In this document: positions 3,821 through 44,208 of the stretch, one piece after another | How positions within the stretch are numbered: the first letter of the stretch is position 1 | Layout: each line of letters starts with the position of its first letter | DNA from: Candidatus Eiseniibacteriota bacterium | Lineage (GTDB): Bacteria > Eisenbacteria > RBG-16-71-46 > SZUA-252 | NCBI GenBank assembly: GCA_043779525.1 | Contig: JAYWED010000031.1 | Coordinates: 4,240 to 68,239 of the forward strand | Direction: 5' to 3' | DNA length: 64,000 bases | Position numbers and translations under genes: made by a program | Notes under the pieces: model-generated | Told to the model about the DNA's origin: nothing | The model's input: the letters and a program-made list of their open reading frames with translations, nothing else | The model's database searches: none

Positions 3821-3825
3821 GGCGA

Positions 3826-13896: not shown

Positions 13897-13953
13897 GGAT
13901 GCACCGACACGGGGAGCGTGGAGCGTGCACGCGTCGCGGGGAGCGGCGGCGCG

Positions 13954-25847: not shown

Positions 25848-27416
25848 TCAAGGTTGGGGGGCAATTGCCCCAGCCGGCTCCGGAGCGAGGAGGGATTTGC
25901 CGGTCATCTCCGCCGGCGGGCGGATTCCCATGATGGAGAGGAGCGTGGGCGCCACGTCGGCCAGAATGCCGTTCCCGATCCGGTAGCGGCGAGGTCCCAC
26001 ACAGAGGATCGGAACCGGGTGCATCGTGTGGGCGGTGTGAGGCCCCCCGGTCTCGTAGTCGATCATCTGGTCGGCGTTCCCGTGGTCGGCGGTTACCAGA
26101 ACCGTTCCCGAGCGGCTCCGGACCACCTCGATCAGGCGCCCCAGGCACCGGTCCACCGTCTCCACCGCCTTCACGGCCGCCTCGATCACCCCCGTGTGAC
26201 CCACCATGTCGGCGTTGGCGTAGTTGAGGACGAAGAAGCCGTACGTTCCGTCGGAGAGCCTGCGGACGGCTTCGTCCGTCAGCTCGCGCGCGCTCATTTC
26301 CGGCTTCAGGTCGTAGGTGGCCACCTTGGAGGAAGGCACGAGCACCCGGTCCTCACCGGGGAACGGCGTCTCCTGGCTGCCGTTGAAGAAGTACGTGACG
26401 TGCGCGTACTTCTCGGTCTCGGCCAATCGAATCTGCCGGACCCCGTCGCGGCTCACGGCCTCGCCCAGGGTCCCACGCAGCGGATCGTCGGCGAAGAGGA
26501 CCGGGTAGGGGAACGTCTCGTCGTAGGAGGTCATGCAAACGTAGTCCAGGTCCAGGGGCCAGCCCGGCCGCTCAAAGGCGTCGAACGCCGGCTCCGCCAG
26601 CGCGCGCGTGATCTGACGCATCCGGTCGGGGCGGAAATTGAACGCGAGCACTGTGTCTCCGCGCGCGATCAGGGCCGGCTCCCCGAAGCCGGACACCACG
26701 GTCGGCTTGACGAACTCATCGTTCTCGCCTCGCGCGTAGGCCTTCTCGAGCGCCTCGACCGCACTCCCGGCCTTGAACCCCTCGCCCTGAACCAGGGTGC
26801 GGTAGCCCAGCTCGGTCCGATCCCAACGCTTGTCCCGGTCCATCGCGTAGTATCGTCCGCCGACCGACGCGATGCGGCCCCGGCCGATCTCGCGAAGGAC
26901 GGCTTCCGTGGCCTCGAGGTCCCCCCGGGCCGAGCGCGGCGGCACGTCGCGGCCGTCGGTGATGGCGTGCACGAAGATGCGCTCCACGCCCGCGGACTTC
27001 GCGATGCGGAGGAGCGCATGGAGATGGCGGGTGTGGCTGTGGACGCCGCCCGCGGAGTGAAGCCCGACGAAGTGGAGCGCGGCATTCCGCTTCCGGGTCC
27101 GCGCCAGAGCGTCGACGAGAGCCTGATTCCGGGAGAGCGTTCCTTCCGCGATCGACCGGTCGATGCGCGTCAGGTCCTGGTAGACGATCCTCCCCGCCCC
27201 GAGGCTCAGGTGCCCGACCTCGGAGTTTCCCATTTGCCCGGCGGGAAGCCCCACGGATTCGCCCCACGTGACCAGCGTCGCGTGCGGACACTCGCGCGTC
27301 AGCGCGTCCATGACCGGAGTGCGCGCCATCAGCACGGCGTTCCCTTCGGCACGGGGGTTCAGCGCCCAGCCGTCGAGAATGATGAGGCCCGTGAGCGACG
27401 ATGATGACGTGGACAT
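25848..27416 (-). CDS. gpmI: 2,3-bisphosphoglycerate-independent phosphoglycerate mutase
   Basis: LIILDGWALNP...MGNSEVGHLSLGAGRIVYQD...LHFVGLHSAGGVHSH...VTADHGNAD full-length iPGM. Confidence 0.95.
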   Translation of the reverse strand: MSTSSSSLTGLIILDGWALNPRAEGNAVLMARTPVMDALTRECPHATLVTWGESVGLPAGQMGNSEVGHLSLGAGRIVYQDLTRIDRSIAEGTLSRNQALVDALARTRKRNAALHFVGLHSAGGVHSHTRHLHALLRIAKSAGVERIFVHAITDGRDVPPRSARGDLEATEAVLREIGRGRIASVGGRYYAMDRDKRWDRTELGYRTLVQGEGFKAGSAVEALEKAYARGENDEFVKPTVVSGFGEPALIARGDTVLAFNFRPDRMRQITRALAEPAFDAFERPGWPLDLDYVCMTSYDETFPYPVLFADDPLRGTLGEAVSRDGVRQIRLAETEKYAHVTYFFNGSQETPFPGEDRVLVPSSKVATYDLKPEMSARELTDEAVRRLSDGTYGFFVLNYANADMVGHTGVIEAAVKAVETVDRCLGRLIEVVRSRSGTVLVTADHGNADQMIDYETGGPHTAHTMHPVPILCVGPRRYRIGNGILADVAPTLLSIMGIRPPAEMTGKSLLAPEPAGAIAPQP

Positions 27417-27713: not shown

Positions 27714-28181
27714 TCATCCTCCTCTTCGGGAAAGAACCTGCGCGCACGCCGCGCAGGCGATCGAGACCAGACACGCGGACCATACGGGCAGGATCCACGG
27801 CCTGGGCACGAGAAACACCAGATCCAGATCGGCAAGGGTGGCCGGGAACCCCGTCCAGAGCCTCAGAAACGCGTAATAGAAAAGATCCCAGAGCCCGAAG
27901 ATCCACAGCCCCCGCGCCAGGGCCACCCGGAGCGGCGGTCTGCTCAGGGACGCGACAGCCGCGATCATGACCAGAGTCGCCGCCTCGCGCCACTGCTCGA
28001 GCCTAAGCCCAGCCTCGGGAATGGGATGAAACGGCGCGGCCCATCCCTCCGGAAAATAGAGCCGCTTGAGCGTGACCACGCAGGCCGCCTCGACCAGCGC
28101 CATCGCGCACGCGAAGACCGTCAGCGCGACAAACCCCACGCGACTCTCGCGGCCCGAACGGCCCCACACGCCCGGATTCAC
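27714..28181 (-). CDS. Small 4-TM membrane protein of unknown function
   Basis: Four hydrophobic helices ([73 protein letters not shown]); start position uncertain (GTG near 28181 suggested). Confidence 0.4.
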
Positions 28182-28933
28182 CCGCCCGCGGACTCGGCGA
28201 GCACCGGCTCCGCCGCAAGGCCCACCGCGTCGAATCCGGCTTCCGTCCACCGCGCGCCGAACCAGGACGCGATCTCCGAGGCCAGGCTCTCAGCGAGAGC
28301 CGCCTCGAGCCGCCCGTCAGACGCATCGCCATGCTCTTCCGCGCCAAGACCCAGGATCTCTCCCAGGGACCGCGCGTTTCGTTCCAGCGCCTCGGACTCC
28401 CGCCGCGCGGCCAGCCGGAACCGCGAGATGGAGCGCGACCGGGCCGTGAGCGGGACCGATGCGTGGCAAACCGCGCCCGTCCGGCCGAAGCGCGACGCGA
28501 TCCCGGCGACCTTGAATCCCCCCGCCAGGACCTCGCCGGGCGCGCTCCCGGCGAAGCACAGCGAAGCTCCGGCGGCTGATTTCGGGCTGCGGTCCGCCGC
28601 CACCCGCGCGTCTCCCACGCCGCATGCGGACAGGGCTCCCGACAGGCACTCCGCGGCGGCGTTCGCGAAACCGCGCGGCGTGAGACCCCAGGGACCGGGA
28701 ACGCTCGCCGCGAGAGCGAATGTGAGTTCCTCTACGTGGAGGACCGCATTCCCTCCCGTGGGACGACGCACGACCTCGATCCCGGCCCGGGAGAGCCCAT
28801 CCTCGTCCCAGCCCTCAGGGTACGGCTCGCTCCGGCCGAGGCTCAGGGTCGGGCGTTCCCAGGAATACGTCCGGTACACGAGGCGGGCTTCGCCCAGCGA
28901 GACCCATCCGAGGAGCGCCCGGTCCGCCGCCAT
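28178..28933 (-). CDS. Lipoate-protein ligase / octanoyltransferase family protein (BPL_LplA_LipB catalytic domain)
   Basis: ...LGRSEPYPEGWDEDGLSRAGIEVVRRPTGGNAVLHVEELTFALAAS... and conserved Lys in GGFKVAGIASR; start taken at MAADRALLGW. Confidence 0.6.
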   Translation of the reverse strand: MAADRALLGWVSLGEARLVYRTYSWERPTLSLGRSEPYPEGWDEDGLSRAGIEVVRRPTGGNAVLHVEELTFALAASVPGPWGLTPRGFANAAAECLSGALSACGVGDARVAADRSPKSAAGASLCFAGSAPGEVLAGGFKVAGIASRFGRTGAVCHASVPLTARSRSISRFRLAARRESEALERNARSLGEILGLGAEEHGDASDGRLEAALAESLASEIASWFGARWTEAGFDAVGLAAEPVLAESAGG

Positions 28934-29021
28934 TTGCCAGGAACCGGCCGCCACGACATGCGGAAGGCGATAGAACAGGTACGGCGAACGCACTGCGGGC
29001 AACCCTCCCGCGATTATCCCG

Positions 29022-29666
29022 CTAGAGGTGAAGAACCCCCAGCCAATCATGGAGAAGGAACATGACGCGTCCGATCAGGAGCGAGATGCGCGCCATCACG
29101 GTGTAGCCATACGAGGCGCCGAAACTCACCATCAGGAAGTAGACGCCGACCCGCGCCGTCCCGCCGAGAGCGCCCTTGTGCTCTTTGGAAAAGAAGAAAA
29201 AGATGAGCGTCGTCAACAGACCGACGATCAGGATCCAGTTGCCGATGGTCGCGCCCAGGTCGTTCGCCACCCAGAGCGGCAGGATGGTGCCGTGGATCTG
29301 CTCCACGAAATCCCCCTGCCCGAATCCCGTGATGCGGAGCGCCGGGTAGACACCCAGGATCAACGCGATGGACCACCGCGAGAGCCAGTCCCCCTTCGGG
29401 AAGAAGCGCGAGAAGAGGAGGACGCCGAGCGCGAGGGGAATCAGGAGCAGGTAATCCCGATGGCCGCCCGCTCCGTGGAACAGAGGATCCAGCAAATTCG
29501 GCTTCACCACCGAGTAGTAGTTGAGGACCACGTAATATCCGGCCGAGACCCCGACGAAGAGATGCTCGCAGAGCTTGTAGGCTGGGTTGTCCTTGTAGAG
29601 GAAGCTGAAGATCCCGAGGGTGAGGAGGGCTGCGATCCAGACGCCGAGGTCCGAGCTGAGATGCAT
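29022..29666 (-). CDS. Multi-pass membrane protein, unknown function (gene 1 of uncharacterised membrane cluster)
   Basis: 214 aa, ~6 predicted TM helices, aromatic-rich; no recognisable motif. Confidence 0.5.
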   Translation of the reverse strand: MHLSSDLGVWIAALLTLGIFSFLYKDNPAYKLCEHLFVGVSAGYYVVLNYYSVVKPNLLDPLFHGAGGHRDYLLLIPLALGVLLFSRFFPKGDWLSRWSIALILGVYPALRITGFGQGDFVEQIHGTILPLWVANDLGATIGNWILIVGLLTTLIFFFFSKEHKGALGGTARVGVYFLMVSFGASYGYTVMARISLLIGRVMFLLHDWLGVLHL

Positions 29667-29667
29667 G

Positions 29668-30504
29668 CTACTTCTTCCCCGCAGTTGAGCGCTGAGGAAG
29701 CGCCGCTAGATTCCCGAGCAGGATCATGAAGGCGATGAAGATGTGCGCGAGGGACTGCGCGTCCATCCCGCGCGTCGCGAGCGCCGGATGCCCGACCAGG
29801 ACCTCGTACTCCGCGGCGCCCGCCATGCCTCCGAGCAGGCCCTGGAGCTGTCCGGCCTGGAGATACGGGTAGTACTCGGGGGCGCTCACGGCCGTCACCC
29901 CGGCCACCATCGGGACGTGGTAACGGGACACGACCTGCTGCACCCACTCCTTCGTCCCCGGGTAGCCCGCGCTGATGCTCACCAGGAGCTTGATCTGGCC
30001 GAAGTTCTCGACGCCCTTCATCACCGGGATCTGGTTCACGGGAATGCCCCGCCGATCGGCGGGATAGGTGACCGGAATGCTGCTCCCGAGCTGGGACATC
30101 ACAGCCTCATTCCCCGACTTGAAACCCAGGTTCACATAGTCGATGCCTTCCCGCTTGTGGAATTCCTCGCCGGCGATGCGGAGCACGCGGTCGGCGAGCG
30201 GCGGTCCCCCCGGATAAAGCTCGACCGAGATGATCTTGATATTTCGTGACATGAGGTGGCGCACGGCGGCCAGGTGCATCGGATAGTTCTCGGCGATCGT
30301 GCCGGGATCGTAGTCGCCCGCCAGGAGCACCGTGGCGCCCTCGGGCACGCGCTGGATCGCGTCGTAGAAGCCTCTCGCGCGGACGCTCGGCCGCACGGGG
30401 GCGATGTGGAACCCGCTCATGAGCGGCACCACGACGAGCAGCCCCACGGCGAGGAAGATCCACCGGCGGTCCAGCCGGCGGAGCGAAGAGAGGGAGAAGC
30501 TCAT
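29668..30504 (-). CDS. Bitopic membrane protein with large extracytoplasmic domain, unknown function
   Basis: N-terminal TM WIFLAVGLLVVVPLMSGF, ~220-aa soluble domain, C-terminal TM LAHIFIAFMILLGNLAAL; 1-2 nt spacing to neighbours. Confidence 0.5.
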   Translation of the reverse strand: MSFSLSSLRRLDRRWIFLAVGLLVVVPLMSGFHIAPVRPSVRARGFYDAIQRVPEGATVLLAGDYDPGTIAENYPMHLAAVRHLMSRNIKIISVELYPGGPPLADRVLRIAGEEFHKREGIDYVNLGFKSGNEAVMSQLGSSIPVTYPADRRGIPVNQIPVMKGVENFGQIKLLVSISAGYPGTKEWVQQVVSRYHVPMVAGVTAVSAPEYYPYLQAGQLQGLLGGMAGAAEYEVLVGHPALATRGMDAQSLAHIFIAFMILLGNLAALPQRSTAGKK

Positions 30505-31136
30505 CCGCCTCCCTCCGAGCCGTAGGTCCGCTCGATGCCCAGAATGATCCGGAAACCGGTGGCCATCACGCCCAGCGCCGCGCCCATGAGAATGCCGCGC
30601 TTGGCCGCGTTCTGGGGCACCTCCATGAGCCAGTCCGCCACCTGCGGCAGGGCCGGGTGGATCATGCTGCCGATCGGAACCCGCCCGAGCATGAGGATGA
30701 AGGCCGCCACCGCGAGGAGAAGCGCCTCGACGCTGCGGACGCGGAACGCGCGAAACGCGGCGGAGGCGATGAAGAACGCCAGCAGCGAGAACATGGTGGA
30801 CGACATGGCGGAATACAGATTGTTGTAGATCCAGGAGAAATGGGTGCCGTCATCCAGGTAGTGGGTCCCCTCGGAGAACCCGACCGTCATCGTGACCAGA
30901 ATTCCCATGACGAGCGCGATCTTGTAGGGCCAGTCCTTCGCGCGGCGCCGGATCTGCTCCACGTTCAGCCGGAGAATGTTCGCCATGCCCAGAACGTAGG
31001 TGAACGCGACGACGATGATCACCCACTGCTGGATCTTGTCGTACCCCGTGCGGATCAACGGATGCGGCACGAAGAACCCGATGAGGACGAAGATACCTGC
31101 GACCATCGAGATCAACAGCGGAATTTCGCGCTTCAC
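30501..31136 (-). CDS. Multi-pass membrane protein, unknown function
   Basis: 211 aa, ~6 TM helices; 4-nt overlap with downstream gene. Confidence 0.5.
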   Translation of the reverse strand: MKREIPLLISMVAGIFVLIGFFVPHPLIRTGYDKIQQWVIIVVAFTYVLGMANILRLNVEQIRRRAKDWPYKIALVMGILVTMTVGFSEGTHYLDDGTHFSWIYNNLYSAMSSTMFSLLAFFIASAAFRAFRVRSVEALLLAVAAFILMLGRVPIGSMIHPALPQVADWLMEVPQNAAKRGILMGAALGVMATGFRIILGIERTYGSEGGG

Positions 31137-31146
31137 GCTCTCGTCC

Positions 31147-32343
31147 TCATTGGGTGGCGAAGAACTCGGCCAGGCCGCGCTGGCCGAGCGTCAGGAGGAT
31201 CGCGCCGAGCACGATGGTGATGACGAGGAGGATCTTGACCGCGTCGGAAGCCTTGAGGCTCCCCAGGAGCTTCGCGTCTTTCGATAGATAGGCGCTCGCC
31301 GCGTAATACTCCTCGCCGATGAGCGTGTAGTCGCACGCGACGACGAAGAACGGAAGTTGATGGACGTTCGCGGTGCCGGCGATCTGGATGGCGCCGATCT
31401 CGTGCCCGGTCTCCGCCAGGAGGAGCGACTCGGCGAAGAAGGCGCCCAGGAGCAGATTCGCCGCCGGCCGTTCCCGGAGCATGATCCCGTTCACCGCCGC
31501 CACGTAGGCGAACTGCTCGCTGGTGATGTAGCGCACCATGTCGGAGCGGTACGCGTCGATTCTTCCGACGTCTGAATACCCGCCCTTCACGACCTCGTCC
31601 GCCACCGTGTACACGGCGGGAGAGGGGGTCGGAACCATGAGCGGCGTCTCGTACTTCGCGGTCATCCGGGCGACGTTGCCGAGGATGATCATGCTGGCGA
31701 TGGTCTGGATGTCGTCGATGTCCTGCACGCCCGGCACGTAGAGGACGCCCTTTCCCATCTCGGTCGAGCGGCCGATGGCCTCCTCGATGGCCGTGAGGCC
31801 CGCGATGGTGCGGAAGGCCCATTTCGTCCCGCGCTCCGCCTGACGGATGTAATAGAGGACCAGGGCCAGGAAGAGCGTGATCACGATGAAGACGTTCAGC
31901 TTCCCCGTGTCGAACCAGCTCGCCTGGGAGGTCGCGGCCGGCGATACATCCGAGAAGAGCGTGGCGTCGGCTAAGAGCGGAACCAGGCGGTAGCGGTAGG
32001 CCACGCCGTTCCGAACTTCGTGGGTCGCCGAGGGCTGGTCGGTGTAGCCCGCGAGGTCGCCGCCGATGGTGTCGATGGGAGCGAACGGCTTCCCGGGCTC
32101 GGCCCGGTAGAGGACCCACTCGGCCGGCGGACGCGGCGGAACCGCCCAGCGCAGCGTCACACTCGACCCGCCGTCGTTGGGGGTGTCGACCGCCTGGAGC
32201 GGAAATCCAAAAGCAGGGGTCACGAGAACGCCGAGGAAGAAAACGAGAATCCGGGCCGCGGATGTCACGCCGTAGCGTTCCTCATGGGGTAGTGCCGGCG
32301 AGCGCTCGAAGCGGACGGTAGGCTCGGAACGGGCGTATGTCAA
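31147..32343 (-). CDS. Membrane protein with N-terminal Fn3-like extracytoplasmic domain, internal TM, soluble domain and C-terminal TM; unknown function
   Basis: Signal/TM AARILVFFLGVLVTPAFG; Fn3-like SSVTLRWAVPP...YRYRLVP; TMs LNVFIVITLFLALVLYYI and AVKILLVITIVLGAILLTL. Confidence 0.5.
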   Translation of the reverse strand: MTYARSEPTVRFERSPALPHEERYGVTSAARILVFFLGVLVTPAFGFPLQAVDTPNDGGSSVTLRWAVPPRPPAEWVLYRAEPGKPFAPIDTIGGDLAGYTDQPSATHEVRNGVAYRYRLVPLLADATLFSDVSPAATSQASWFDTGKLNVFIVITLFLALVLYYIRQAERGTKWAFRTIAGLTAIEEAIGRSTEMGKGVLYVPGVQDIDDIQTIASMIILGNVARMTAKYETPLMVPTPSPAVYTVADEVVKGGYSDVGRIDAYRSDMVRYITSEQFAYVAAVNGIMLRERPAANLLLGAFFAESLLLAETGHEIGAIQIAGTANVHQLPFFVVACDYTLIGEEYYAASAYLSKDAKLLGSLKASDAVKILLVITIVLGAILLTLGQRGLAEFFATQ

Positions 32344-32355
32344 GCCGCAAGCGGC

Positions 32356-33486
32356 TCATGATTCGATCATTTCCACGTTGGCTCGCGGCAGGAGAGCCCG
32401 GGAATCGCTCCCGAAATCCACCTCCAGGACCCGCACCCGCGCTTCGGTCTCGAGCGGCATGAGCTCGGGCGGCAACGCCGTCACCCGGCCGATCCGGCCG
32501 AAATAGGGCTGCCGGATCACGCGGACCATGTCCCCTGCCTTGAGACCCCCGTCGGCTTCCTCCTCCTGCCTGCTTCGCGCGGGGGCGGAACCCTTGGGAT
32601 TCGGGGCCACGATCTCCGGACGCAGCACTCCGGCGCGGATCTGGGTCGCCCCGCTCACCGAGACGCGGCGCCCCTCGCAGGCGCGAAGCAGCTCGAAGGT
32701 CCGGGTGGCCATGGGAATCGAGCCGAACCCCTCCGTCACGATGAGGGTGATGCCCAGCTCCTCCGATCCCGTGATCGCGACGCCCAGGTCATACCCCAGG
32801 AGCTCGCGCAGATCATGATCGTCGAAGCCGCCCACCACGACCGCCTTGATCCCCAGCGCGACAGCTCTACGCAGAACCGCGGCGGTCACGTACGCCCCGC
32901 CGACGACGATCTTCCCCTTGCTCTCGGCGTCGATGGCGCGCTCCTCGAGGGGCTCGGCCGGATCGGAGACGGCCACATGCAGCTGGCCGCACGTTTCCCC
33001 GCCCACGCCGAAGATCCCCTGGATGAACGCCCCCTCGGTCTCCACGGTGACGCCCGAGCGCGGGTGGACCTCCACCACGGTTCCGTCCACGTACGCGTCC
33101 ACCTCGACCGGGATCGGCTCCTCACGGAGAAGAACCTGTCCCGTGATCTTCGAGACGCTCTCGATGGTGCCCTTCACGGGCGCGTGGCACTTGGACCGGA
33201 AGAGCCCGAAGAAGGATCGGTTCTCGGCGAAAGATTCCCCCTTGTCGATCTTGGATCCCACGGGCTTCGTGAGGCATTCCTCCACGTCCTCGGGAAGGAC
33301 GCCCAGAAGGTTCGCCGCGTTGACGGTCTGCACGTTCCCCGGAAGCTCCGTGCGCGCCACGATGGTGTCCGCCGTGACCGTCTGTCCCACCCTCACCAGC
33401 ACGTCGCCGGGGAGCGGGAGCTTCCGCTCCCTCCGGATTCTCGTGGAGGCGGTCACCTTGAGGCCGGGAGTGTAGGAGTGCGCCAT
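32356..33486 (-). CDS. Conserved hypothetical protein (376 aa), genomic partner of the GlmL-like ATPase
   Basis: No stop-codon conflicts; Gly-rich Rossmann-like stretch GIKAVVVGGFDDHDLRELLGYDLGVAITGSEELGITLIVTEGFG; barrel-like repeats at N and C termini (GDVLVRVGQTVTADTIVART / GDMVRVIRQPYFGRIGRVT); no confident family assignment. Confidence 0.45.
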   Translation of the reverse strand: MAHSYTPGLKVTASTRIRRERKLPLPGDVLVRVGQTVTADTIVARTELPGNVQTVNAANLLGVLPEDVEECLTKPVGSKIDKGESFAENRSFFGLFRSKCHAPVKGTIESVSKITGQVLLREEPIPVEVDAYVDGTVVEVHPRSGVTVETEGAFIQGIFGVGGETCGQLHVAVSDPAEPLEERAIDAESKGKIVVGGAYVTAAVLRRAVALGIKAVVVGGFDDHDLRELLGYDLGVAITGSEELGITLIVTEGFGSIPMATRTFELLRACEGRRVSVSGATQIRAGVLRPEIVAPNPKGSAPARSRQEEEADGGLKAGDMVRVIRQPYFGRIGRVTALPPELMPLETEARVRVLEVDFGSDSRALLPRANVEMIES

Positions 33487-33489
33487 GGG

Positions 33490-35352
33490 TCAGACCCTCG
33501 CCGCGAGCGGCCGGAACTCGGCCGTCGACACCTTGGCGGTCTCGCGCGGCGGATAGATGTCGAGCGCCTCGTTCCAGAGATTCAGCTTCGCGATTCGCGC
33601 GGCGCGATCCTCGGGCAGGCGGAAGGGCCGCCGTCCGCGGCAGTCGAAGATGAGCCCCACCACGCCCCCCTTCAGCGTCACGACGCGCTCCCGGCCCTTC
33701 CCTTCGCCGACGTCGAACGCCTTCTCCGGGCGGAGCGTCGCCTTCGCGGTCTCGCCGAGATCCAGCGGCACGAGCTTCAGGGATCCATAGGGAATCGAGA
33801 TCTCCTCGCGCTTCCCGCCTGGAAGCTCGAGTGTCACGCGGAGCGCCGCCATGCCGTCCTTGCCGGGACCGACCGGGGCCACGCTGCTCCCGAGCCGGAT
33901 CAGGCAGTCCTTCTCGAAGACCTCCTTGGCGGCACGCGGGTGCACCGTGGAGAGCACGCCCAGCTGCGGCATCATGAAGATCGAGTCGACCGCGAGCTCG
34001 GTGACGTGCTCGGGAAGGAACGCGTCGAGCATCATGAGGGCCGCCTGCGCACGGCGCGGCGCGTGGGAGAGGACGCCACCGCTTCCCACGAGAAGATCCA
34101 GGTGGTCGAGCCGGACCAGGGTCTCCCCGCTCGCCGTCTGCTCGAAGGTGTCCGAGATGGTGCGCTCTTGCTGTACGCCCTTCAGCCCGACCGCCAGCGA
34201 CTTGTGCTGCTCGAAGGCGAGCCGGAGCGCCTCGCGCGCGATCGCCTGCTCGATGATCAGCTCCTCCAGCGACTGGGGAATGGTCGTCGGACGGATCATC
34301 TTGTTCTTGATCCGGTTCCTGAGATCCCGCTCCTCGATCTCGAACGGCACCCAGCGTAGTATGTTCGGCAGGCCCGCCTCGGCGAGGACGTTGGAGACGC
34401 TGTAGCTCATGCCGAGGTTCGCGCTCACGGTGCGGTTGAAGACCCCCTCGAAGACCGAGAACACGTCCGTGGTGGCCCCGCCGATGTCCACGCCGACCAC
34501 CTGGATGCCTCCCTCGCGCGCGATCGTCTCGATGATGAGCCCGACCGCTCCGGGCGTCGGCATGATCGGCACCGGAGACCACGTCATGAGCTTGCGGTAT
34601 CCCGGCGCGTGGGCCATCACGTGCTCCATGAAGAGATCGTGAATCTTGTCGCGGGCCGGACCCAGGTTCTCGCGCTCGAGGACGGGACGCAGGTTCTCGG
34701 TGATCACCAGCGCGACCTTCTTCCCGAGCCGTTCCTTCACGATGTCGATCGCGTTCTTGTTTCCGGCGTAGATGACCGGCAGCTCGTATCCCGCCCCAAG
34801 CCGCGCCTTGGGGTCCGCCGCGGCGAGAAGCTCCGCCATCTCGGCCACGTGCGACGTGGTGCCGCCGTCCACGCCCCCGGAGAGGAGGATCATGTCGGGG
34901 CGGAGATGGCGGATCCGCTTGATCTTCTCGTGGGGGAGGCGGCCGTCGTTGCTCGCGATCACGTCCATCACGATCGCGCCGGCGCCCAGCGCCGCGCGCT
35001 GCGCGCTCTCGCCCGTCATGCTCTTGACCACGCCCGATACCATCATCTGGAGCCCGCCCCCGGCGCTGGAGGTGGAGAGGTAGAGATCGACTCCTTCGGT
35101 CCCGTTCTGGGGCGTGATGATCCGCTCCCCGTCCAGGATCTTCCGCCCGGCCAGCTCCTCCACTTCCATGATCGCGTTCAAGACACCGCGGGTCACGTCC
35201 TCGAAGGGCGCCTCCACCGTGGTGGGCGCTTCCCCGCGGACGATGAGGCGGTACTCCGAGCCGCGGCGCTCGATCAGGATCGCCTTGGTCGTGGTGCTGC
35301 CGCAATCCGTCGCGAGAATCGAATTCAGTTTTTCGGGATCGATGGTGCTCAC
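33490..35352 (-). CDS. GlmL/MutL-like ASKHA-superfamily ATPase (methylaspartate-mutase accessory protein family), no mutase genes nearby
   Basis: N-terminus ILATDCGSTTTKAILIE (phosphate-1), later VVGVDIGGATTDVFSV (phosphate-2) typical of actin/Hsp70/GlmL fold; 620 aa. Confidence 0.55.
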   Translation of the reverse strand: MSTIDPEKLNSILATDCGSTTTKAILIERRGSEYRLIVRGEAPTTVEAPFEDVTRGVLNAIMEVEELAGRKILDGERIITPQNGTEGVDLYLSTSSAGGGLQMMVSGVVKSMTGESAQRAALGAGAIVMDVIASNDGRLPHEKIKRIRHLRPDMILLSGGVDGGTTSHVAEMAELLAAADPKARLGAGYELPVIYAGNKNAIDIVKERLGKKVALVITENLRPVLERENLGPARDKIHDLFMEHVMAHAPGYRKLMTWSPVPIMPTPGAVGLIIETIAREGGIQVVGVDIGGATTDVFSVFEGVFNRTVSANLGMSYSVSNVLAEAGLPNILRWVPFEIEERDLRNRIKNKMIRPTTIPQSLEELIIEQAIAREALRLAFEQHKSLAVGLKGVQQERTISDTFEQTASGETLVRLDHLDLLVGSGGVLSHAPRRAQAALMMLDAFLPEHVTELAVDSIFMMPQLGVLSTVHPRAAKEVFEKDCLIRLGSSVAPVGPGKDGMAALRVTLELPGGKREEISIPYGSLKLVPLDLGETAKATLRPEKAFDVGEGKGRERVVTLKGGVVGLIFDCRGRRPFRLPEDRAARIAKLNLWNEALDIYPPRETAKVSTAEFRPLAARV

Positions 35353-35630
35353 GAAATTCCCTTTCTCCCCTTGCGGGCGCCTCGTTCCGCGCGTTCCCGC
35401 TCCCGGCGCTCCCGCTCCTCGTGGCGCGCCGCGTCGTCCCGCGCCTCGATCTTCACGAGCAGGACCTCGAGATTCTCCCGTTGCTCCATCAGGACCGCGA
35501 ACCGCTCGTAGTCCCGGACCGGGAAGAACGCGTTCACCATCGGCTCGAAGAAGTGCATCGCCTGGCTCCCCACGAAGGAGAGCGGCTTCATGCTCTCGAG
35601 GAAGAAGATGGCGGGCACCGTCATGCGGTG
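35349..35630 (-). CDS. Small hypothetical protein with Arg/Glu-rich C-terminal tail
   Basis: Likely start MTVPAIFFLESMKPLSFVGSQAMHFFEPMV...; 4-nt overlap with GlmL-like gene; start uncertain. Confidence 0.3.
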   Translation of the reverse strand, partial: HRMTVPAIFFLESMKPLSFVGSQAMHFFEPMVNAFFPVRDYERFAVLMEQRENLEVLLVKIEARDDAARHEERERRERERAERGARKGRKGIS

Positions 35631-35667
35631 CCGCACGGTGAGCTCGGCGAGCCTGTCGAGGAGCGCC

Positions 35668-36192
35668 TCATCCTCCGGAGCCCGCGGCGGCGCGCCGACC
35701 CCGGCCCCGGCGTCCGGGACCTTCCCTTCCTCCGCGCTCGAAGACGACGGGGAGCTTCGTTTCCACAAACGCCACGACTTGATCTCGGTTTCCTCCGAAG
35801 GGAAGCCTCACGCCCCGATACGCCTCGAGCCAGCTTCGCTTCTCGAATGGACTCAGGAACACCCCGCCCCGATCGACGGTCGCGCGCCGCATCTCCGACC
35901 ACGGTCTCGCCCGGGCCACTCCCAGCGCCCGGACCTCGATCGCCTCGGGCGTGAGACGATAGCGCGTCCTCGCGATGAACGACCCGACCGAGAGGAGGAC
36001 GAACACCGGCGCCGCGGCTCCCAGCACCTTGTCGCCCGTCCCCTCAGCGATCAGGACGCCGAGCACGAGGAGCGACGCCACCAGCACCGCCGCGGCCCAC
36101 GGCCGCTCGCGGGCCGGCCAGACCGACCACTCCAGCGCTTGCGGCGTCTCCCGCGCGACGGGCGCGGGGACGCGTTCCTCAACCGCCGCCAC
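35668..36192 (-). CDS. Membrane protein with two N-terminal TM helices and a small cytoplasmic (bPH-like?) domain
   Basis: TMs AAAVLVASLLVLGVLIA and APVFVLLSVGSFIA followed by ~90-aa soluble domain; start overlaps gcvPB stop by 14 nt. Confidence 0.4.
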   Translation of the reverse strand: MAAVEERVPAPVARETPQALEWSVWPARERPWAAAVLVASLLVLGVLIAEGTGDKVLGAAAPVFVLLSVGSFIARTRYRLTPEAIEVRALGVARARPWSEMRRATVDRGGVFLSPFEKRSWLEAYRGVRLPFGGNRDQVVAFVETKLPVVFERGGREGPGRRGRGRRAAAGSGG

Positions 36193-37648
36193 CCTCAGCC
36201 TCGAGATCCCGCCAGGTCAAGGTGAGCTTCCGGGCCGCACGGGCTTCGTCCAGTCGCCGCACCGGCGTCATCGTCGGCGCCTGCTTGACCCGCTCCGGAT
36301 CCTCTCTCGTCTCGCGGTCGATCGCGAGGAGCGCCTCGGCCAGGGAATCCAGGCTCGCCTTGGTCTCCGTCTCGGTCGGCTCGATCATCAACGCCTCGTC
36401 CACGATCAGCGGGAAATAGGTCGTGGGGGCGTGCATCCCGAAATCGAGGATCCGCTTGGCGATGTCCAGGGCCCTCACCCCCCGCGCCTTCTGGCGCGAG
36501 GCGGAGAGCACGAACTCGTGCATGCAATACCCCTCGTGCGACGGCGCGTAGGCCTCGGCCAGCCTGGATTTCAGGTAGTTCGCGTTCAGGATCGCCTCCC
36601 GGCTCACCTCCGCCAGGCCCGAGGCGCCGAGGCTCTTCACGTAACAGAGCGCGCGGACCAGCATTCCGAAATTGCCGTAGTAGGAGTGCACGCGGCCGAT
36701 GGACCGCGGCCGGTCGTAGTTCCAGCGGTACCCCTCGTCCGAGCGCTCCAGCACCGGAGTCGGCAGGAACGGCTCCAGATCCTGCCGCACGCAGAGCACC
36801 CCTCCTCCGGGCCCTCCGCCGCCGTGCGGCGTGGAGAAGGTCTTGTGAAGATTGATATGCGCGAAATCGAAGCCCATGGCGCCCGGGCTCGCGAGCCCTA
36901 CCAGCGCGTTCATGTTGGCGCCGTCCAGATAGAGGAGTCCGCCCGCCTCGTGCACGATGCGCGCGATCTCGCCGACCTGGCGCTCGAAGATGCCGAGCGT
37001 GTTCGGGTTGGTGAGCATGAGCGCCGCGGTCTTCCCCGACACCTCGCGCTTCAAGGCCTCGAGGTCCACACAACCGTCCGGACCCGAGGGGACGGTGACG
37101 GCGCGGTACCCGACCTGGTTCACCGTCGAAGGGTTCGTGCCGTGGGCCGAATCCGGCACGATGACCTCTTCGCGCGGGTCGCCCCGCTGCGCGTGATACG
37201 CGCGCGTCATGAGAATCGCGGTCAGCTCGCACTGCGCTCCGGCGGCCGGCTGGGTGGTGATCGCGGGCATGCCCATGATCGTCTTCAGCCACTCGTGCAA
37301 CTCCCCGATCACGGCGAGGGCCCCTTGGGAGAGCTCCTCCGGCTGGAACGGATGGATGCCCGCAAGTCCCGGCATCTGAGCCATTTCATCGTTCAGCTTC
37401 GGGTTGTACTTCATGGTGCAGGAGCCCAACGGATAGATGGCTTTGTCGATGTGGTGGTTCAGAACCGAGAGGTTGACGAAGTGCCGGACCGTGGCGGGCT
37501 CCGAGATCTCCGGAAGACCGGGGGGCTCGGCGCGGAGGCGCTCCCGCGGCAGAAGCCGTTCCGCGCCCTCCCCGGGCACGTCGAGCGGAGCGAGCCTCGG
37601 ACCCCGATGGCCCTTCACGGACAGCTCGCGCAGGGTCAGCTCCGCCAC
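36179..37648 (-). CDS. gcvPB: Glycine dehydrogenase (decarboxylating) subunit 2 (P-protein C-terminal half, PLP-binding)
   Basis: ...YPLGSCTMKYNP...HINLHKTFSTPHGGGGPGGG... (PLP-Lys motif NLHKTF). Confidence 0.95.
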   Translation of the reverse strand: MAELTLRELSVKGHRGPRLAPLDVPGEGAERLLPRERLRAEPPGLPEISEPATVRHFVNLSVLNHHIDKAIYPLGSCTMKYNPKLNDEMAQMPGLAGIHPFQPEELSQGALAVIGELHEWLKTIMGMPAITTQPAAGAQCELTAILMTRAYHAQRGDPREEVIVPDSAHGTNPSTVNQVGYRAVTVPSGPDGCVDLEALKREVSGKTAALMLTNPNTLGIFERQVGEIARIVHEAGGLLYLDGANMNALVGLASPGAMGFDFAHINLHKTFSTPHGGGGPGGGVLCVRQDLEPFLPTPVLERSDEGYRWNYDRPRSIGRVHSYYGNFGMLVRALCYVKSLGASGLAEVSREAILNANYLKSRLAEAYAPSHEGYCMHEFVLSASRQKARGVRALDIAKRILDFGMHAPTTYFPLIVDEALMIEPTETETKASLDSLAEALLAIDRETREDPERVKQAPTMTPVRRLDEARAARKLTLTWRDLEAEGGGG

Positions 37649-39024
37649 GCGGCCTCCTGGACGGGCGCCTTCGCGGCGTGGCGCGCCCAGTCGGCCAGCG
37701 TCTCCACGTAACGGTCCATCTCCTCGCGCGTGCGCTTCTCGGTCACGGCCACGAGCAGGTCGCGCGCGCGCGCGGGGTCGAAGCGCTCGAGTGGAACGCC
37801 GGCGAGGATGCGCCGTTTCTCCGCGGCGCGCAGGAACCCGGCCGCGGGGCCCGGAAGCCGGAGCACGAACTCCCGGAAAAAGGGCGCGTCCCCGTTCGCG
37901 AGCGTGACGCCCGGCACCTGTGTGGCGCGCTTCGCGAGATAGTGGGTCTTCTCCATGGACTGGGTCGCGACGTCACGAAGCCCCTGCGCGCCCAGGAGCG
38001 CCATGTGGATCGCGTTGGCCAGGGCCATCAGGCCCTGGTTGGTGCAGATGTTCGAGGTCGCCCGCTCGCGACGGATGTGCTGCTCGCGCGTCTGCAGCGT
38101 GAGCACGTAGCCGCGGCGCCCTTCCAGATCCACGGTCGCGCCCGCGAGCCGGCCCGGCAGGCGGCGCACGTCGGACTTCCGAATCGCGAAGAAGCCCACG
38201 AGCGGCCCGCCGTATCCCATGGGCACTCCGAGCGGCTGGCCCTCGCCCACCACGATGTCCGCTCCATCCTGGCCCGGCGGCTTCAGCAGCGCGAGCGCGA
38301 CCGGATCGGCCGAGGCGATGGAATAGGCGCCCGCCGCGTGAACGGCTTTCGTGACGCCCGCGCCGTCCTCGACGATCCCCTCGAAGTTGGGTTGCGCCCA
38401 CAGGAACGCTGCCACCTCAGGGGTCAGCGCCTTCGCCAGCGCCGCGACCTGAGTCGCGCCGCGCTCCAGCGGAACCTCGCGCACCTCGAAGGAGCCCGCC
38501 GCGGCATAGGTCCGGACCACCTCGCGGTAGTGCGGATGAACGCCGCGCGAGAGGAGAAGGACCCGCCGGCCGGTGGCGCCCATGGCGAGATGCGCCGCCT
38601 CGGCGCAGGCGGTCGCGCCGTCGTACATCGAGGCGTTCGCGACCTCCATGCCGGTCAGCTCGCAGATCATCGATTGGTACTCGAAGATCGTCTGCAGGGT
38701 GCCCTGGGAGACCTCGGGCTGGTAGGGCGTGTAGGCGGTGGCGAATTCGGAGCGGGAGATCAAGGACCGCAGCGCCGCGGGAATGAAGTGGTCGTAGATG
38801 CCGGCGCCCAGGAAACAGGCGTAGTGCAGCGCGTCGGCGTTGGATTCCGCCCACTGGGCGAAGCGCCGGGCGATCTCGTATTCCGCGAGCGGCGGATCGA
38901 CCGGGAGCGGACCCAGGACGCGGAACTCAGGCGGGATCGCCTCCCAGAGCGCCTCGACGCTCGGAGCGCCGATCTTCTCCAGCATGGCGCGGCGCTCCGC
39001 TTCGCTTCGCCCCACAAAACTCAC
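37636..39024 (-). CDS. gcvPA: Glycine dehydrogenase (decarboxylating) subunit 1; GTG start overlapping gcvH stop (GTGA)
   Basis: VSFVGRSEAERRAMLEKIG...YTPYQPEVSQGTLQTIFEYQSMICELTGMEVANASMYDGATA...; upstream 156 codons of the track ORF are junk. Confidence 0.9.
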   Translation of the reverse strand: MSFVGRSEAERRAMLEKIGAPSVEALWEAIPPEFRVLGPLPVDPPLAEYEIARRFAQWAESNADALHYACFLGAGIYDHFIPAALRSLISRSEFATAYTPYQPEVSQGTLQTIFEYQSMICELTGMEVANASMYDGATACAEAAHLAMGATGRRVLLLSRGVHPHYREVVRTYAAAGSFEVREVPLERGATQVAALAKALTPEVAAFLWAQPNFEGIVEDGAGVTKAVHAAGAYSIASADPVALALLKPPGQDGADIVVGEGQPLGVPMGYGGPLVGFFAIRKSDVRRLPGRLAGATVDLEGRRGYVLTLQTREQHIRRERATSNICTNQGLMALANAIHMALLGAQGLRDVATQSMEKTHYLAKRATQVPGVTLANGDAPFFREFVLRLPGPAAGFLRAAEKRRILAGVPLERFDPARARDLLVAVTEKRTREEMDRYVETLADWARHAAKAPVQEAAWRS

Positions 39025-39407
39025 GCGTGGGCCCCCAGCGCCTTCTCGTAGGCCTCCGCGCTCAGGAGCGCGTCCATCTCGGAGGGGTTCGCGATCTTGA
39101 TCCGGATCATCCAGCCCTTCTCGTACGGAGACTGGTTGATGAGCGAGGGATCTTCCTTCAGGGCCGTGTTGACCGCGGACACCTCTCCCGAAACAGGCGC
39201 GAAGAGATCGCTCACGGTCTTCACCGCGTCGATCGTGCCGAAGCTCTTCGTCCGCGCGAGGGTCGCGCCCACCGCCGGCAGCTCCACGAAGACGACGTCT
39301 CCCAGCTCGCCCTGCGCGAAATCGGTGATGCCGACCTCCGCTTCCTGGCCGCGCACGCGCACCCATTCGTGCTCTTTCGTGTACTTGAGATCCCTCGGGA
39401 CCTTCAT
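39021..39407 (-). CDS. gcvH: Glycine cleavage system H protein (lipoyl carrier)
   Basis: YTKEHEWVRV...GITDFAQGELGDVVFVELP...SFGTIDAVKTVSDLFAPVSGEV (lipoyl-Lys in DAVKTVSD). Confidence 0.95.
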   Translation of the reverse strand: MKVPRDLKYTKEHEWVRVRGQEAEVGITDFAQGELGDVVFVELPAVGATLARTKSFGTIDAVKTVSDLFAPVSGEVSAVNTALKEDPSLINQSPYEKGWMIRIKIANPSEMDALLSAEAYEKALGAHA

Positions 39408-40537
39408 GTCGCTCTCCTGGGTTTGGGGGCGCGCACGCTTCCTTGTCGGTACATCGGCCGCGCGGTGACCGACGCCGGCGACTCGGTTCCACGGGTGCGC
39501 ACGTCCACCTTCGATCCGGCCCGCGCGTGGTCGCGCTCCGCGTAGGCCATCGCGACCGGTTTTCCGATGCTGATGCCCATGGATCCGCTCGTGACGGTGC
39601 CGACCGGTGCCCCCTGGCTCAGCACCTCCGAGCCGTGGCGCGCGATCCGCTCGCCCTCGAGGACCAGGCCCACCAGTCTGCGTGGATAGCCTTCACGTTC
39701 CGCAGCCAGGAGCGCGTCCCTTCCGATGAAGGAAGCTTTCTCGAGCCGGACGGTCCAGCCGAGGCCGGCTTCCAGAGGATGCTTCGTCTCGTCGATGTCA
39801 TTCCCGTAGAGGCAGTAGCCCATCTCGAGGCGCAACGTGTCGCGCGCTCCCAGGCCGATGGGCCGGATGAGGGCCGGGCGGCCCGCCTCGAATACGCGGT
39901 CCCAGGTTTCGAGCGCGCGGGAGGCCTTGACGTAGATCTCGAAGCCGTCCTCTCCCGTGTAGCCGGTCCGCGAGACGAGCGTGCGGTCCTCCCCTTCTCC
40001 TTCCTCGAAGAAGGTGTAGAACTCCAGGCTCTTCACGCGCTCGCCGTAGATCCGCGCCACGACTTCCTCGGCCCTGGGCCCCTGAACCGCGAGCTGCGCC
40101 GTCTCCTCGTTTTCGTCCACGACACGCACGTCGCGAGGCGCGTGCTCGCGCACCCACGCCAGGTCTTTCTCGAAGTTCGCGGCGTTCACGACGAGGAGCC
40201 GGTCTGAGCCCGCGGCGTAGACCAGAAGGTCGTCCACGATCCCGCCTGTTTCGAGGCACATCGGCGTGTACACGGCCTTGCCGTCCGGAATGGAATCGAC
40301 CTGGTTCGTCACGAGGTGATTCGCGTACGCGCGGGCCCCGGAGCCGGTGAGACGGATTTCCCCCATGTGGGAGACGTCGAAGACACCGACGCCGCCGCGC
40401 ACGGCCCGGTGCTCGGCCACGATGCCCTCGTACTGGATCGGCATCTCGTACCCGGCGAATGGAACCATCTTGGCGCCGAGGGCCACGTGGCGGGCGTAGA
40501 ACGGCGTTCGTTTCAGCGTGGAAGTGGTGTCGAGCAT
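39404..40537 (-). CDS. gcvT: Aminomethyltransferase (glycine cleavage T protein)
   Basis: KRTPFYARHVALGAKMVPFAGYEMPIQYEG...VFDVSHMGEIRLTG... full-length GcvT. Confidence 0.95.
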   Translation of the reverse strand: MLDTTSTLKRTPFYARHVALGAKMVPFAGYEMPIQYEGIVAEHRAVRGGVGVFDVSHMGEIRLTGSGARAYANHLVTNQVDSIPDGKAVYTPMCLETGGIVDDLLVYAAGSDRLLVVNAANFEKDLAWVREHAPRDVRVVDENEETAQLAVQGPRAEEVVARIYGERVKSLEFYTFFEEGEGEDRTLVSRTGYTGEDGFEIYVKASRALETWDRVFEAGRPALIRPIGLGARDTLRLEMGYCLYGNDIDETKHPLEAGLGWTVRLEKASFIGRDALLAAEREGYPRRLVGLVLEGERIARHGSEVLSQGAPVGTVTSGSMGISIGKPVAMAYAERDHARAGSKVDVRTRGTESPASVTARPMYRQGSVRAPKPRRAT

Positions 40538-40603
40538 CCTCAATTCTTGCCTGAGGTTAAGGTGGATCGAGAAGATCTGACGGTATCACATCCGCGCCGG
40601 GAT

Positions 40604-43446: not shown

Positions 43447-43456
<10 letters not shown>
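40604..43456 (-). CDS. uvrA: Excinuclease ABC subunit A
   Basis: Start at [65 protein letters not shown]; two ABC modules with zinc-finger CxxC motifs. Confidence 0.95.

Positions 43457-44208
<752 letters not shown>

Follow-up and report, generated by a model that had tools for sequence, protein, structure and literature searches.

A GlmL-type ASKHA ATPase, a swivelling-domain partner and a four-protein membrane cassette form a conserved gene module in Candidatus Eiseniibacteriota and other phyla

Introduction

To our knowledge, the biochemistry of the GlmL/MutL family of ASKHA ATPases (Pfam MutL, PF13941) has never been settled and the role of GlmL itself is only presumed. In the B12-enzyme reactivase DdrAB, the alpha subunit consists of an Hsp70-like ATPase and a swivelling domain, and an ADP/ATP switch opens the partner enzyme. 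Here we describe a region of eight genes within a stretch of 64,000 nucleotides from a Candidatus Eiseniibacteriota bacterium (contig JAYWED010000031.1 of assembly GCA_043779525.1), hereafter the window. In this region a GlmL/MutL-family ATPase of 620 residues (GlmL620) is encoded together with a soluble partner of 376 residues (P376), two small proteins (S93 and S174) and a cassette of four membrane proteins (the DUF6754 protein, M211, M278 and M214).

The region may represent a self-contained, ancient module for a multi-subunit, ATP-driven machine of the inner membrane which moves or processes a substrate, a lipid-type molecule being the leading guess; we favour this reading tentatively and it could well prove otherwise. 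Its composition, its autonomy, the coupling of the ATPase to its adaptor and the logic of the cassette are well supported; in addition we infer a physical complex, conformational coupling, transport and the identity of the substrate. Since the module failed the defining tests of B12 reactivases, of ATP-binding cassette (ABC) and energy-coupling factor (ECF) transporters, of Rnf/Nqr complexes, of phospho-relays of the phosphotransferase system (PTS) type and of lipoyl carriers, we provisionally rate it, from the sequences, as a new kind of system.

Recurrence of a seven-gene core across phyla

P376 was scanned against one genome per GTDB species, which gave at least 440 confirmed matches; the best 80 loci were fetched and their gene order was read by tblastn and by profile searches with the window proteins. 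The closest relative, locus L001, belongs to a metagenome-assembled genome (MAG) of Candidatus Eisenbacteria (Eiseniibacteriota) and displays 96% identity over P376; the organism of the window is thus Eisenbacteria-like and no member of Gemmatimonadota, in whose genomes the initial annotation had proposed to look. The order S93-GlmL620-P376-DUF6754-M211-M278-M214 is observed in the Eisenbacteria-type loci, in Acidobacteriota (L036) and in Ignavibacteria, as well as in more than 25 Nitrospirota loci. Among the latter is the cultured Nitrospira moscoviensis, where the module stands as its own co-directional block after two small open reading frames (ORFs) of opposite orientation. S93 adjoins the ATPase gene in nearly all loci; in Marinimicrobia the order of the module is kept except for S93, which has moved behind P376, between it and the DUF6754 gene. 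With dozens of loci in several phyla sharing this order, the arrangement is not due to chance.

The conserved core is composed of seven genes, namely S93, the ATPase, P376 and the four genes of the membrane cassette. The initial annotation, made on this DNA alone, had described an eight-gene module; seven of these genes are conserved together but the eighth, S174, is present in some phyla only. The gene-neighbourhood check that it had proposed shows that the GlmL-like gene, the 376-residue partner and the four membrane genes indeed co-occur in Eisenbacteria, Nitrospirota, Acidobacteriota, Marinimicrobia and Ignavibacteria. The module also appears undescribed, as had been supposed: in the corpus of papers searched, none deals with DUF6754, PF20539 or PF13941, nor with any GlmL-like protein in such a setting, and in public annotations these proteins go under 'hypothetical', 'KOW domain-containing', 'DUF6754 domain-containing' or 'glutamate mutase L'. 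Homologues of P376 number more than 8000 in 90% clusters, with 555 representatives at E<1e-30 at 50% clustering. Their labels further include WOR-3, Hydrothermota, TA06, Armatimonadota, Calditrichota, Elusimicrobia and Ozemobacteraceae; MAG labels are fallible and a few are clearly wrong, such as the 'Alphaproteobacteria' loci that carry sorting domains of the type IX secretion system.

Two independent head-to-tail fusions join the ATPase to P376. One of them, of 995 residues, is found on several marine contigs in an otherwise intact module (L085:10001-12988 and L086:7214-10201), and the other, of 1003 residues, in Candidatus Ozemobacteraceae (P0210/P0281), where it is annotated 'glutamate mutase L'. 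In Ignavibacteria L058 a single S174-S93-GlmL620-P376 set is followed by two full cassettes and by the first two genes of a third, which runs to the contig end (L058:6844-16672). These cassette copies are 40-63% identical, and their DUF6754 proteins display longer ectodomains (458-518 residues). The multiplication of the cassette implies that the four membrane genes act as one unit and that the soluble pair can serve several of them.

In lineages where the genes are dispersed, S93, GlmL620 and P376 tend to remain linked (L022, L060); elsewhere P376 is found on its own with housekeeping genes around it (Calditrichota, WOR-3 and Hydrothermia). In the WOR-3/Hydrothermia loci L087 (6150-8987) and L088 (6151-8991), the stand-alone P376 lies directly downstream of a 945-residue TMEM260-like tetratricopeptide-repeat protein, TMEM260 belonging to the GT-C-type glycosyltransferases; on the opposite strand, about 7 kb from P376, a lipid kinase of the YegS type is encoded. 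Inserted genes separate P376 from the ATPase gene in certain lineages. L089 has a 23S_rRNA_IVP-family gene at this place (8595-8975), L027 (7205-9912) has an IS200-type transposase gene together with genes for TerC and a methyltransferase, and the inserts of L020 and L038 comprise, among others, genes for dienelactone hydrolase and methyltransferase. As nothing matched the PADLOC models of defence systems, the module is not considered one.

The ATPase and its soluble partner

GlmL620 matches Pfam MutL (PF13941) over its full length, with 423 bits against a cutoff of 27 (E=2e-126), residues 12-483 being aligned to model positions 1-450. The phosphate-1, phosphate-2 and adenosine motifs of the ASKHA fold (DCGSTTTK, DIGGATTD and GSGGxLSHAP) are invariant in 66 homologues as well as in 29 cross-phylum GlmL620 sequences, which bears out the early assignment of the 620-residue protein as GlmL/MutL-like. 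Hydantoinase_A and Hydant_A_N appear as secondary Pfam matches.

GlmL620 thus belongs to the same ATPase domain family as GlmL and Or-4 and carries all of the nucleotide motifs, but it differs from them in several respects. Its scores remain below the NCBIfam cutoffs for GlmL (NF040745, 228.5 versus 475), for Or-4 (NF040744, 211.7 versus 600) and for glmL_fam (TIGR01319, 160.5 versus 204). It extends beyond the PF13941 region by a conserved C-terminal domain of ~140 residues, is accompanied by P376 in all cases and by the membrane cassette in most, and is never found beside a B12 mutase. Neither the window nor any related locus examined holds a gene for a B12 mutase or dehydratase, as the initial annotation had stated of the mutase for the neighbourhood, and the DxHxxG cobalamin motif occurs in 0-1 sequences per family in all eight families. 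With neither motif nor mutase, a link to B12 was rejected.

The conservation of the ATPase is very high, with 64-75% identity between phyla and a mean column identity of 69% in the 29 cross-phylum sequences. GcvP and GcvT are less conserved when the same two genomes are compared; at locus L029, for example, the ATPase is 74% identical versus 57% for GcvPB. Sequence and profile searches of the PDB gave no solved relative. GlmL620 is presumed to be the motor of the module.

The model of P376 displays three domains, an N-terminal barrel-sandwich hybrid, a swivelling beta/beta/alpha domain in the middle and a KOW/SH3-like barrel at the C-terminus. No significant Pfam family was found for the protein, PDB sequence and profile searches gave no match, and the whole-length model matches no PDB structure, the TM-score normalised to the query being at most 0.17. 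Its N-terminal domain has a lipoyl/biotinyl-type fold with only weak matches (Biotin_lipoyl, E=0.053; GcvH, E=0.45). A likeness to RnfC/NqrA is confined to this N-terminal domain (RnfC_N/NQRA), the later domains being different.

The swivelling domain matches both DdrA and the mobile domain of phosphoenolpyruvate (PEP)-utilising enzymes. Hence, GlmL620 and P376 share with DdrAB (PDB 2d0o), EutA and PduG the combination of an ASKHA ATPase with a swivelling domain, but as two chains. Unlike in DdrAB, the swivelling domain belongs to a distinct protein (joined to the ATPase in two lineages only), where it is accompanied by barrel-sandwich and KOW domains; furthermore, the module has neither a DdrB-like subunit nor a B12 enzyme and its partners are membrane proteins. 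From PTS Enzyme I, PEP synthase and rifampin phosphotransferase, with which the mobile-domain fold is shared, P376 is distinguished by its lack of the catalytic phospho-histidine.

Among 46 diverse P376 homologues, no column reaches 80% for Lys, His, Cys or Asp, and position 201, at which we placed the phospho-histidine site, varies between T, S, D and N. P376 was considered as a lipoyl/biotinyl swinging arm and as a phospho-histidine relay, and both candidates were ruled out, the former for want of a conserved Lys and the latter of a conserved His. Given that no Lys, His or Cys is conserved, a covalent swinging-arm or phospho-relay role is excluded.

The membrane cassette

Hydropathy displays clear transmembrane (TM) segments in S174, the DUF6754 protein, M211, M278 and M214, that is in five of the six proteins which had been announced as membrane proteins, but only a hydrophobic patch in the sixth, S93. 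From hydropathy and alignments, two TM helices were counted in S174, two to three in the DUF6754 protein, ~6 in M211, two in M278 and ~6-7 in M214, so that the four-protein cassette would hold an estimated ~17 altogether. According to the positive-inside rule, the Fn3 domain of the DUF6754 protein and the alpha/beta domain of M278 are probably periplasmic and the DUF6754 core cytoplasmic.

The DUF6754 protein matches Pfam PF20539 with 369 bits (E=1e-110) over residues 140-394. It is laid out as a signal peptide or N-terminal TM helix, an Fn3 domain, a TM helix, a conserved core of ~200 residues and a C-terminal TM helix. The Fn3-like ectodomain that had been noticed on one of the membrane proteins was confirmed here by sequence and by fold, and the Fn3 domain is also the only part of the protein found by PDB sequence and profile searches. 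Within the hydrophobic sequence of the core, E305, E311, T312, Q320, C337, Y339, T340, E344 and E345 are invariant. The AlphaFold2 (AF2) model has a mean predicted local distance difference test (pLDDT) score of 69, with an alpha/beta arrangement of moderate confidence at residues 183-280 and values below 50 at residues 281-342, the most conserved stretch. Such a stretch might be a surface which takes its fold only when in contact with its partners. In the Marinimicrobia loci L065 and L062, the DUF6754 protein is without the Fn3 ectodomain and is ~290-300 residues long.

M211 always adjoins DUF6754 and M278. Its six TM helices are read from hydrophobic segments and the positive-inside rule, and it carries the conserved motif TMFxLLAFFIASAAxRAFR (alignment A4, 26 invariant columns). 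The M211 homologue of the same two Marinimicrobia loci (L065:12314-13342 and L062:12323-13354) is ~340 residues long, with an extra N-terminal half unmatched to the window M211. M278 displays a domain of ~215 residues of alpha/beta type between TM residues 17-35 and 251-269, with the motifs GQLxGLLGGMxGAAEYE and GMDAQSxAH (alignment A5). M214, the last cassette gene in every complete locus, carries the motifs LYKDNPxYKxAEHLFVGVSAGY and FGYTVMARxSLLIGR (alignment A6, 33 invariant columns). In M211 and M214, invariant Arg, Glu, His and Gln are found in or beside predicted TM helices.

M211, M278 and M214 have no match in Pfam, NCBIfam or PDB sequences, searches with the family profiles included. 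Member by member, Pfam scans of M278 and M214 gave scattered sub-threshold matches only, among them weak ABC_sub_bind matches in just 2 of 28 M278 members (E=0.04). The guess that M278 is a duplicate of DUF6754, or that M211 and M214 are paralogues, was shown to be wrong by an all-against-all hhalign comparison of the eight families, in which no two proved paralogous.

A likeness to transporters is seen in the gene arrangement, the single ATPase pair of L058 being placed before several diverged cassettes as are the shared ATPases of group II ECF and ABC systems, and in M278, which resembles a membrane-tethered binding domain in layout alone. However, none of the eight proteins matches a P-loop/ABC_tran or permease family in Pfam or NCBIfam. 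Unlike in ABC and ECF transporters, the ATPase of the module is of actin/Hsp70 fold and its membrane proteins are unrelated to any Pfam transporter family. Likewise, no Rnf-Nqr family match and no Fe-S or flavin motif was found, nor any invariant Cys in M211 or M214.

The small proteins S93 and S174

S93 has no Pfam match and carries the hydrophobic motif PAIFFLESxKPLSFxGSQAxHFF. The initial annotation had located the eight ORFs of the region correctly, the start of the DUF6754 gene probably excepted (see below), but had set the start of S93 at 35630; this is not a start codon, and the in-frame candidates are ATG 35624, GTG 35636 and TTG 35768. Homologues conserve residues upstream of 35630, up to ~35690 in comparison with the 116-residue homologue of Nitrospira.

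S174 has two predicted TM helices (residues 31-49 and 56-74) and a predicted cytoplasmic PH-like domain, its homologue in L084 matching Pfam bPH_6 with 25.7 bits against a cutoff of 22. Homologues were found in Eisenbacteria, in Acidobacteriota L036 and in Ignavibacteria L058 and L059, and none was detected upstream of the Nitrospira modules; S174 is an accessory part. Its Arg/Gly-rich C-terminal tail overlaps, in another frame, TTG 35768, the sole upstream start candidate of S93 (window 35668-35768). In L083 and L084, the overlap of the S174 and S93 genes amounts to 11 nt only.

Layout of the locus

Every credible gene between 25.8 and 43.5 kb of the window lies on the minus strand (Table 1), and Pfam supports the identities given to the flanking genes.

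Table 1. Genes of the module and of its flanks; coordinates are positions in the 64,000-nt window and all module genes are on the minus strand.
Feature	Position	Strand	Remarks
uvrA	40604-43513	-	flank, upstream
gcvT-gcvH-gcvPA-gcvPB block	36179-40543	-	glycine-cleavage context, outside the conserved core
gcvT	39404-40543	-	Pfam GCV_T
gcvH	39021-39407	-	Pfam GCV_H
gcvPA	37636 to ~39000	-	Pfam GDC-P
gcvPB	36179-37648	-	Pfam GcvP2_C
S174	35668-36192	-	small membrane protein, accessory
S93	35349-35636	-	small conserved protein, ~92-139 aa, start uncertain
GlmL620	33490-35352	-	620-aa GlmL/MutL-family ASKHA ATPase
P376	32356-33486	-	376-aa soluble three-domain partner of the ATPase
DUF6754 protein (398 aa)	31147-32343	-	cassette gene 1; Pfam PF20539
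M211	30501-31136	-	cassette gene 2; polytopic membrane protein
M278	29668-30504	-	cassette gene 3; domain between two TM helices
M214	29022-29666	-	cassette gene 4; polytopic membrane protein
LplA/LipB-fold gene	28178-29050	-	context; overlaps the end of M214
csp	27505 to ~27708	-	flank, downstream
gpmI	25848-27416	-	flank, downstream

Tight spacing had been claimed from gcvT down to csp; it holds within the module and up to the LplA-like gene, but ~466 nt separate the latter from csp, the packing being looser from there on. A gap of 60 nt lies between uvrA and gcvT. The S174 ORF begins inside gcvPB (14-nt overlap), the S93 stop lies over the ATPase start (4-nt overlap) and a 3-nt spacer precedes P376. 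Within the cassette, DUF6754 and M211 are separated by 10 nt, M211 and M278 overlap by 4 nt, M278 and M214 are 1 nt apart, and M214 overlaps the LplA-like gene by 29 nt. The spacer between P376 and DUF6754 is 12 nt with the TTG start at 32343 and ~87 nt with a GTG at 32268. The latter is probably the true start, as it would give a signal-peptide-like N-terminus; the close homologue P0378, of 373 residues, has such an N-terminus. A consensus scan of 27-41 kb displayed no promoter-like site, and terminator-like sites showed no excess. Together with the overlapping or nearly abutting ORFs, these scans are consistent with co-transcription from gcvT to the LplA-like gene.

Rfam and tRNA scans of the window gave no match, and no glycine riboswitch was found upstream of gcvT. 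The product of the LplA-like gene is divergent, with 53.5 bits for Pfam LplA-B_cat and 26.4 bits for BPL_LplA_LipB, and scores far under the cutoffs of the NCBIfam ligase models. Elsewhere in the window, the stretches 12001-14000 and 2001-4000 display a G+C content of 0.72-0.73, above that of the rest, and a strongly positive AT skew (0.30 and 0.14 respectively), also in comparison with the remainder; each coincides with a long minus-strand ORF, at 11348-14179 and 1532-3820 respectively.

Genomic neighbours

The flanks of the module vary by lineage, which shows its autonomy. In the Eisenbacteria-type loci, down to ~50% identity of P376 and DUF6754, gcvT, gcvH and often gcvP are found upstream and an LplA/LipB-fold gene downstream. 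The gcv linkage is conserved solely in these loci, among which the identity of the LplA-like neighbour drops to 29-38%. In four Nitrospirota loci (L037, L041, L044 and L068), LipA is encoded in the same orientation at 0-1.5 kb upstream, and a gene for a lipoylated E2 comes before it in L037 and L068; with LipA and E2 found there, the idea that the lipoate context is specific to Eisenbacteria was dropped.

Other lineages display neighbours of phospholipid and fatty-acid metabolism. In a large lineage of Nitrospira, the module comes directly after plsY and a gene for a CDP-alcohol phosphatidyltransferase (pgsA), which themselves follow kdsB-pyrG-kdsA-kdsD; an ORF noted there, N220, proved to be an out-of-frame reading of plsY. 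Upstream of the module, loci of the N. defluvii type carry genes for a fatty-acid desaturase and an ApbC/NUBPL protein. In Marinimicrobia L062 the ATPase gene begins directly after the last base of cdsA, and a YegS-type lipid kinase gene and cdsA precede the fused form. In L026, accD comes before S93, and in Calditrichota it lies two to three genes from the stand-alone P376, with dapA, dapB and folP also around. No lipid or lipoate neighbours are seen in Acidobacteriota L036, Elusimicrobia L060, WOR-3/Hydrothermia, the Armatimonadota-labelled locus or L090. The recurrence of genes from fatty-acid-derived pathways in unrelated phyla is suggestive, as a pattern noticed post hoc in the 90 loci fetched. 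The lipoate link suspected in the initial annotation is neither confirmed nor dismissed by these data: the gcv/LplA flanks of Eisenbacteria-type loci and LipA in four Nitrospirota loci agree with it, the other lineages have phospholipid, fatty-acid or unrelated neighbours instead, and P376 itself has a lipoyl-like fold but no conserved lysine.

Some further neighbours were recorded. Downstream of M214, nearly every Nitrospirota locus carries a Memo-like gene (PF01875) in the same orientation (for instance L081:13731-14975 and L076:14976-16220), which is not seen at this place in other phyla. On the Eisenbacteria-type contigs L083 (20452-21224) and L084 (20891-21233), the module is followed by an Opp-type ABC transporter and then, ~6 kb from the module, by BMC and EutN/CcmL microcompartment shell genes.

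Discussion

In the machine that we tentatively propose, GlmL620, the adaptor P376 and S93 would form a cytoplasmic head, which would dock on the DUF6754-M211-M278-M214 cassette with its periplasmic Fn3 domain and predicted periplasmic alpha/beta domain. By analogy with the single-chain B12-enzyme reactivase DdrA, ATP binding and hydrolysis by GlmL620 would switch the position of the swivelling domain of P376, and this switch would drive a conformational cycle of the cassette by which a substrate is moved or processed at the inner membrane or across it. The cassette would be the exchangeable, substrate-specific part and the ATPase pair the shared energiser. The substrate may most likely be derived from fatty acids (a phospholipid, an acyl chain, or lipoate/octanoate), as the recurring neighbours suggest, and this is the weakest step of the proposal. 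We favour this machine because the gene order is conserved across phyla, the ATPase and P376 are fused twice, the cassette is multiplied in L058 and the ATPase motifs are invariant, and because of the swivelling domain of P376, the invariant charged and polar residues of the membrane proteins and the recurring lipid and lipoate neighbours. In its most specific form, it would be the first primary-active transporter or translocase with a GlmL-type ASKHA ATPase in place of a P-loop, P-type or rotary one, a swivelling adaptor, exchangeable cassettes and an acyl-lipid cargo, spread over many diderm phyla of which few members are in culture; in this full form the claim is doubtful.

Several points weigh against the machine. 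Transport, the physical complex and the substrate are all putative, and profile searches of Pfam, NCBIfam and the PDB displayed no likeness of any membrane component to known transporters or enzymes. The DUF6754 core is modelled poorly by AF2, and the neighbour pattern, noticed post hoc, is missing in L036, L060, WOR-3/Hydrothermia, the Armatimonadota-labelled locus and others. Moreover, the genes are dispersed in several lineages, and a P376 on its own in Calditrichota and WOR-3 is odd for an obligate transporter subunit. Finally, the very high conservation of the ATPase would equally fit a polymer or a chaperone.

This last point brings in a membrane-anchored scaffold or chaperone, that is an actin-like polymer or an Hsp70-like clamp anchored in the manner of MreB/MreC/MreD or FtsA. 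The ASKHA fold of GlmL620 and a cross-phylum identity of 64-75%, at the level of Hsp70 and MreB, would agree with it, as would the dispersed genes seated among housekeeping genes (dapA, dapB, folP and accD in Calditrichota) and the hydrophobic/amphipathic motif of S93, which could tether the ATPase to the membrane. However, we know of no polymerisation in the GlmL family, the swivelling-domain architecture of P376 is of the reactivase type and not cytoskeletal, and multiplied cassettes are unexpected for a scaffold, so that we hold this explanation to be improbable. A membrane-bound enzyme complex, in which the ASKHA protein activates a substrate with ATP, like acetate and butyrate kinases or the relatives of hydantoinase and acetone carboxylase, and the cassette makes or modifies an acyl-lipid or lipoate-related compound, is a stronger competitor, although still unlikely. 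It would account for the Hydantoinase_A and Hydant_A_N matches of GlmL620, for the invariant Glu, Asp, Cys, Thr and Gln in the hydrophobic setting of the DUF6754 core, which are frequent in membrane enzymes, and for the recurring neighbours plsY, pgsA, cdsA, accD, fatty-acid desaturase, LipA and LplA-like. General knowledge also speaks for it, given that PlsY uses acyl-phosphate and that carboxylate kinases, such as those for acetate and butyrate, have the ASKHA fold. Nevertheless, the membrane parts are similar to no known enzyme family in Pfam, NCBIfam or the PDB, P376 has no conserved carrier residue, and an enzyme facing the cytoplasm leaves the periplasmic Fn3 domain and the predicted periplasmic domain of M278 unexplained. 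Several cassettes behind one ATPase pair also fit exchangeable specificity modules better than an enzyme.

The neighbours could instead point to an accessory of lipoate enzymes, serving the uptake of lipoate or octanoate for the LplA-like ligase or the ATP-dependent upkeep of lipoylation or of LipA. Indeed, the module lies between gcvTHP and the LplA/LipB-fold gene even in divergent Eisenbacteria-type loci (to ~50% identity), LipA is upstream in Nitrospirota L037, L041, L044 and L068 with a lipoylated E2 in L037 and L068, and the N-terminal domain of P376 is of lipoyl/biotinyl fold with weak Biotin_lipoyl and GcvH matches. Yet lipoate genes are missing from the surroundings of the module in most other lineages, no lysine is conserved in P376, and several diverged cassettes together with extreme conservation are ill-suited to a trace-cofactor function, which makes this accessory role slightly more improbable still than the scaffold. 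Least probable of all, and very unlikely, is a canonical GlmL-type reactivase for a coenzyme-B12-dependent mutase encoded elsewhere. Membership of PF13941 and the annotation of some homologues as 'glutamate mutase L' would suggest it, but GlmL620 lies far under the NCBIfam equivalog cutoffs of GlmL and Or-4, no mutase gene occurs in the window or the related loci examined, the DxHxxG motif is missing as a conserved feature from all eight families and the constant partners are membrane proteins.

If the proposed membrane machine is real, it would be of housekeeping grade and built of parts unlike those of known transporter, enzyme and cytoskeletal systems, in many phyla including Nitrospirota, Eisenbacteria, Marinimicrobia, Ignavibacteria, Acidobacteriota, Calditrichota and WOR-3. 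Given that Nitrospira moscoviensis is cultured and carries the module, the system is accessible to experiment. The GlmL family would gain a second, B12-independent role, and three membrane protein families, none yet in Pfam, would be defined. Furthermore, the module may have a bearing on how molecules derived from fatty acids are moved or built in these organisms.

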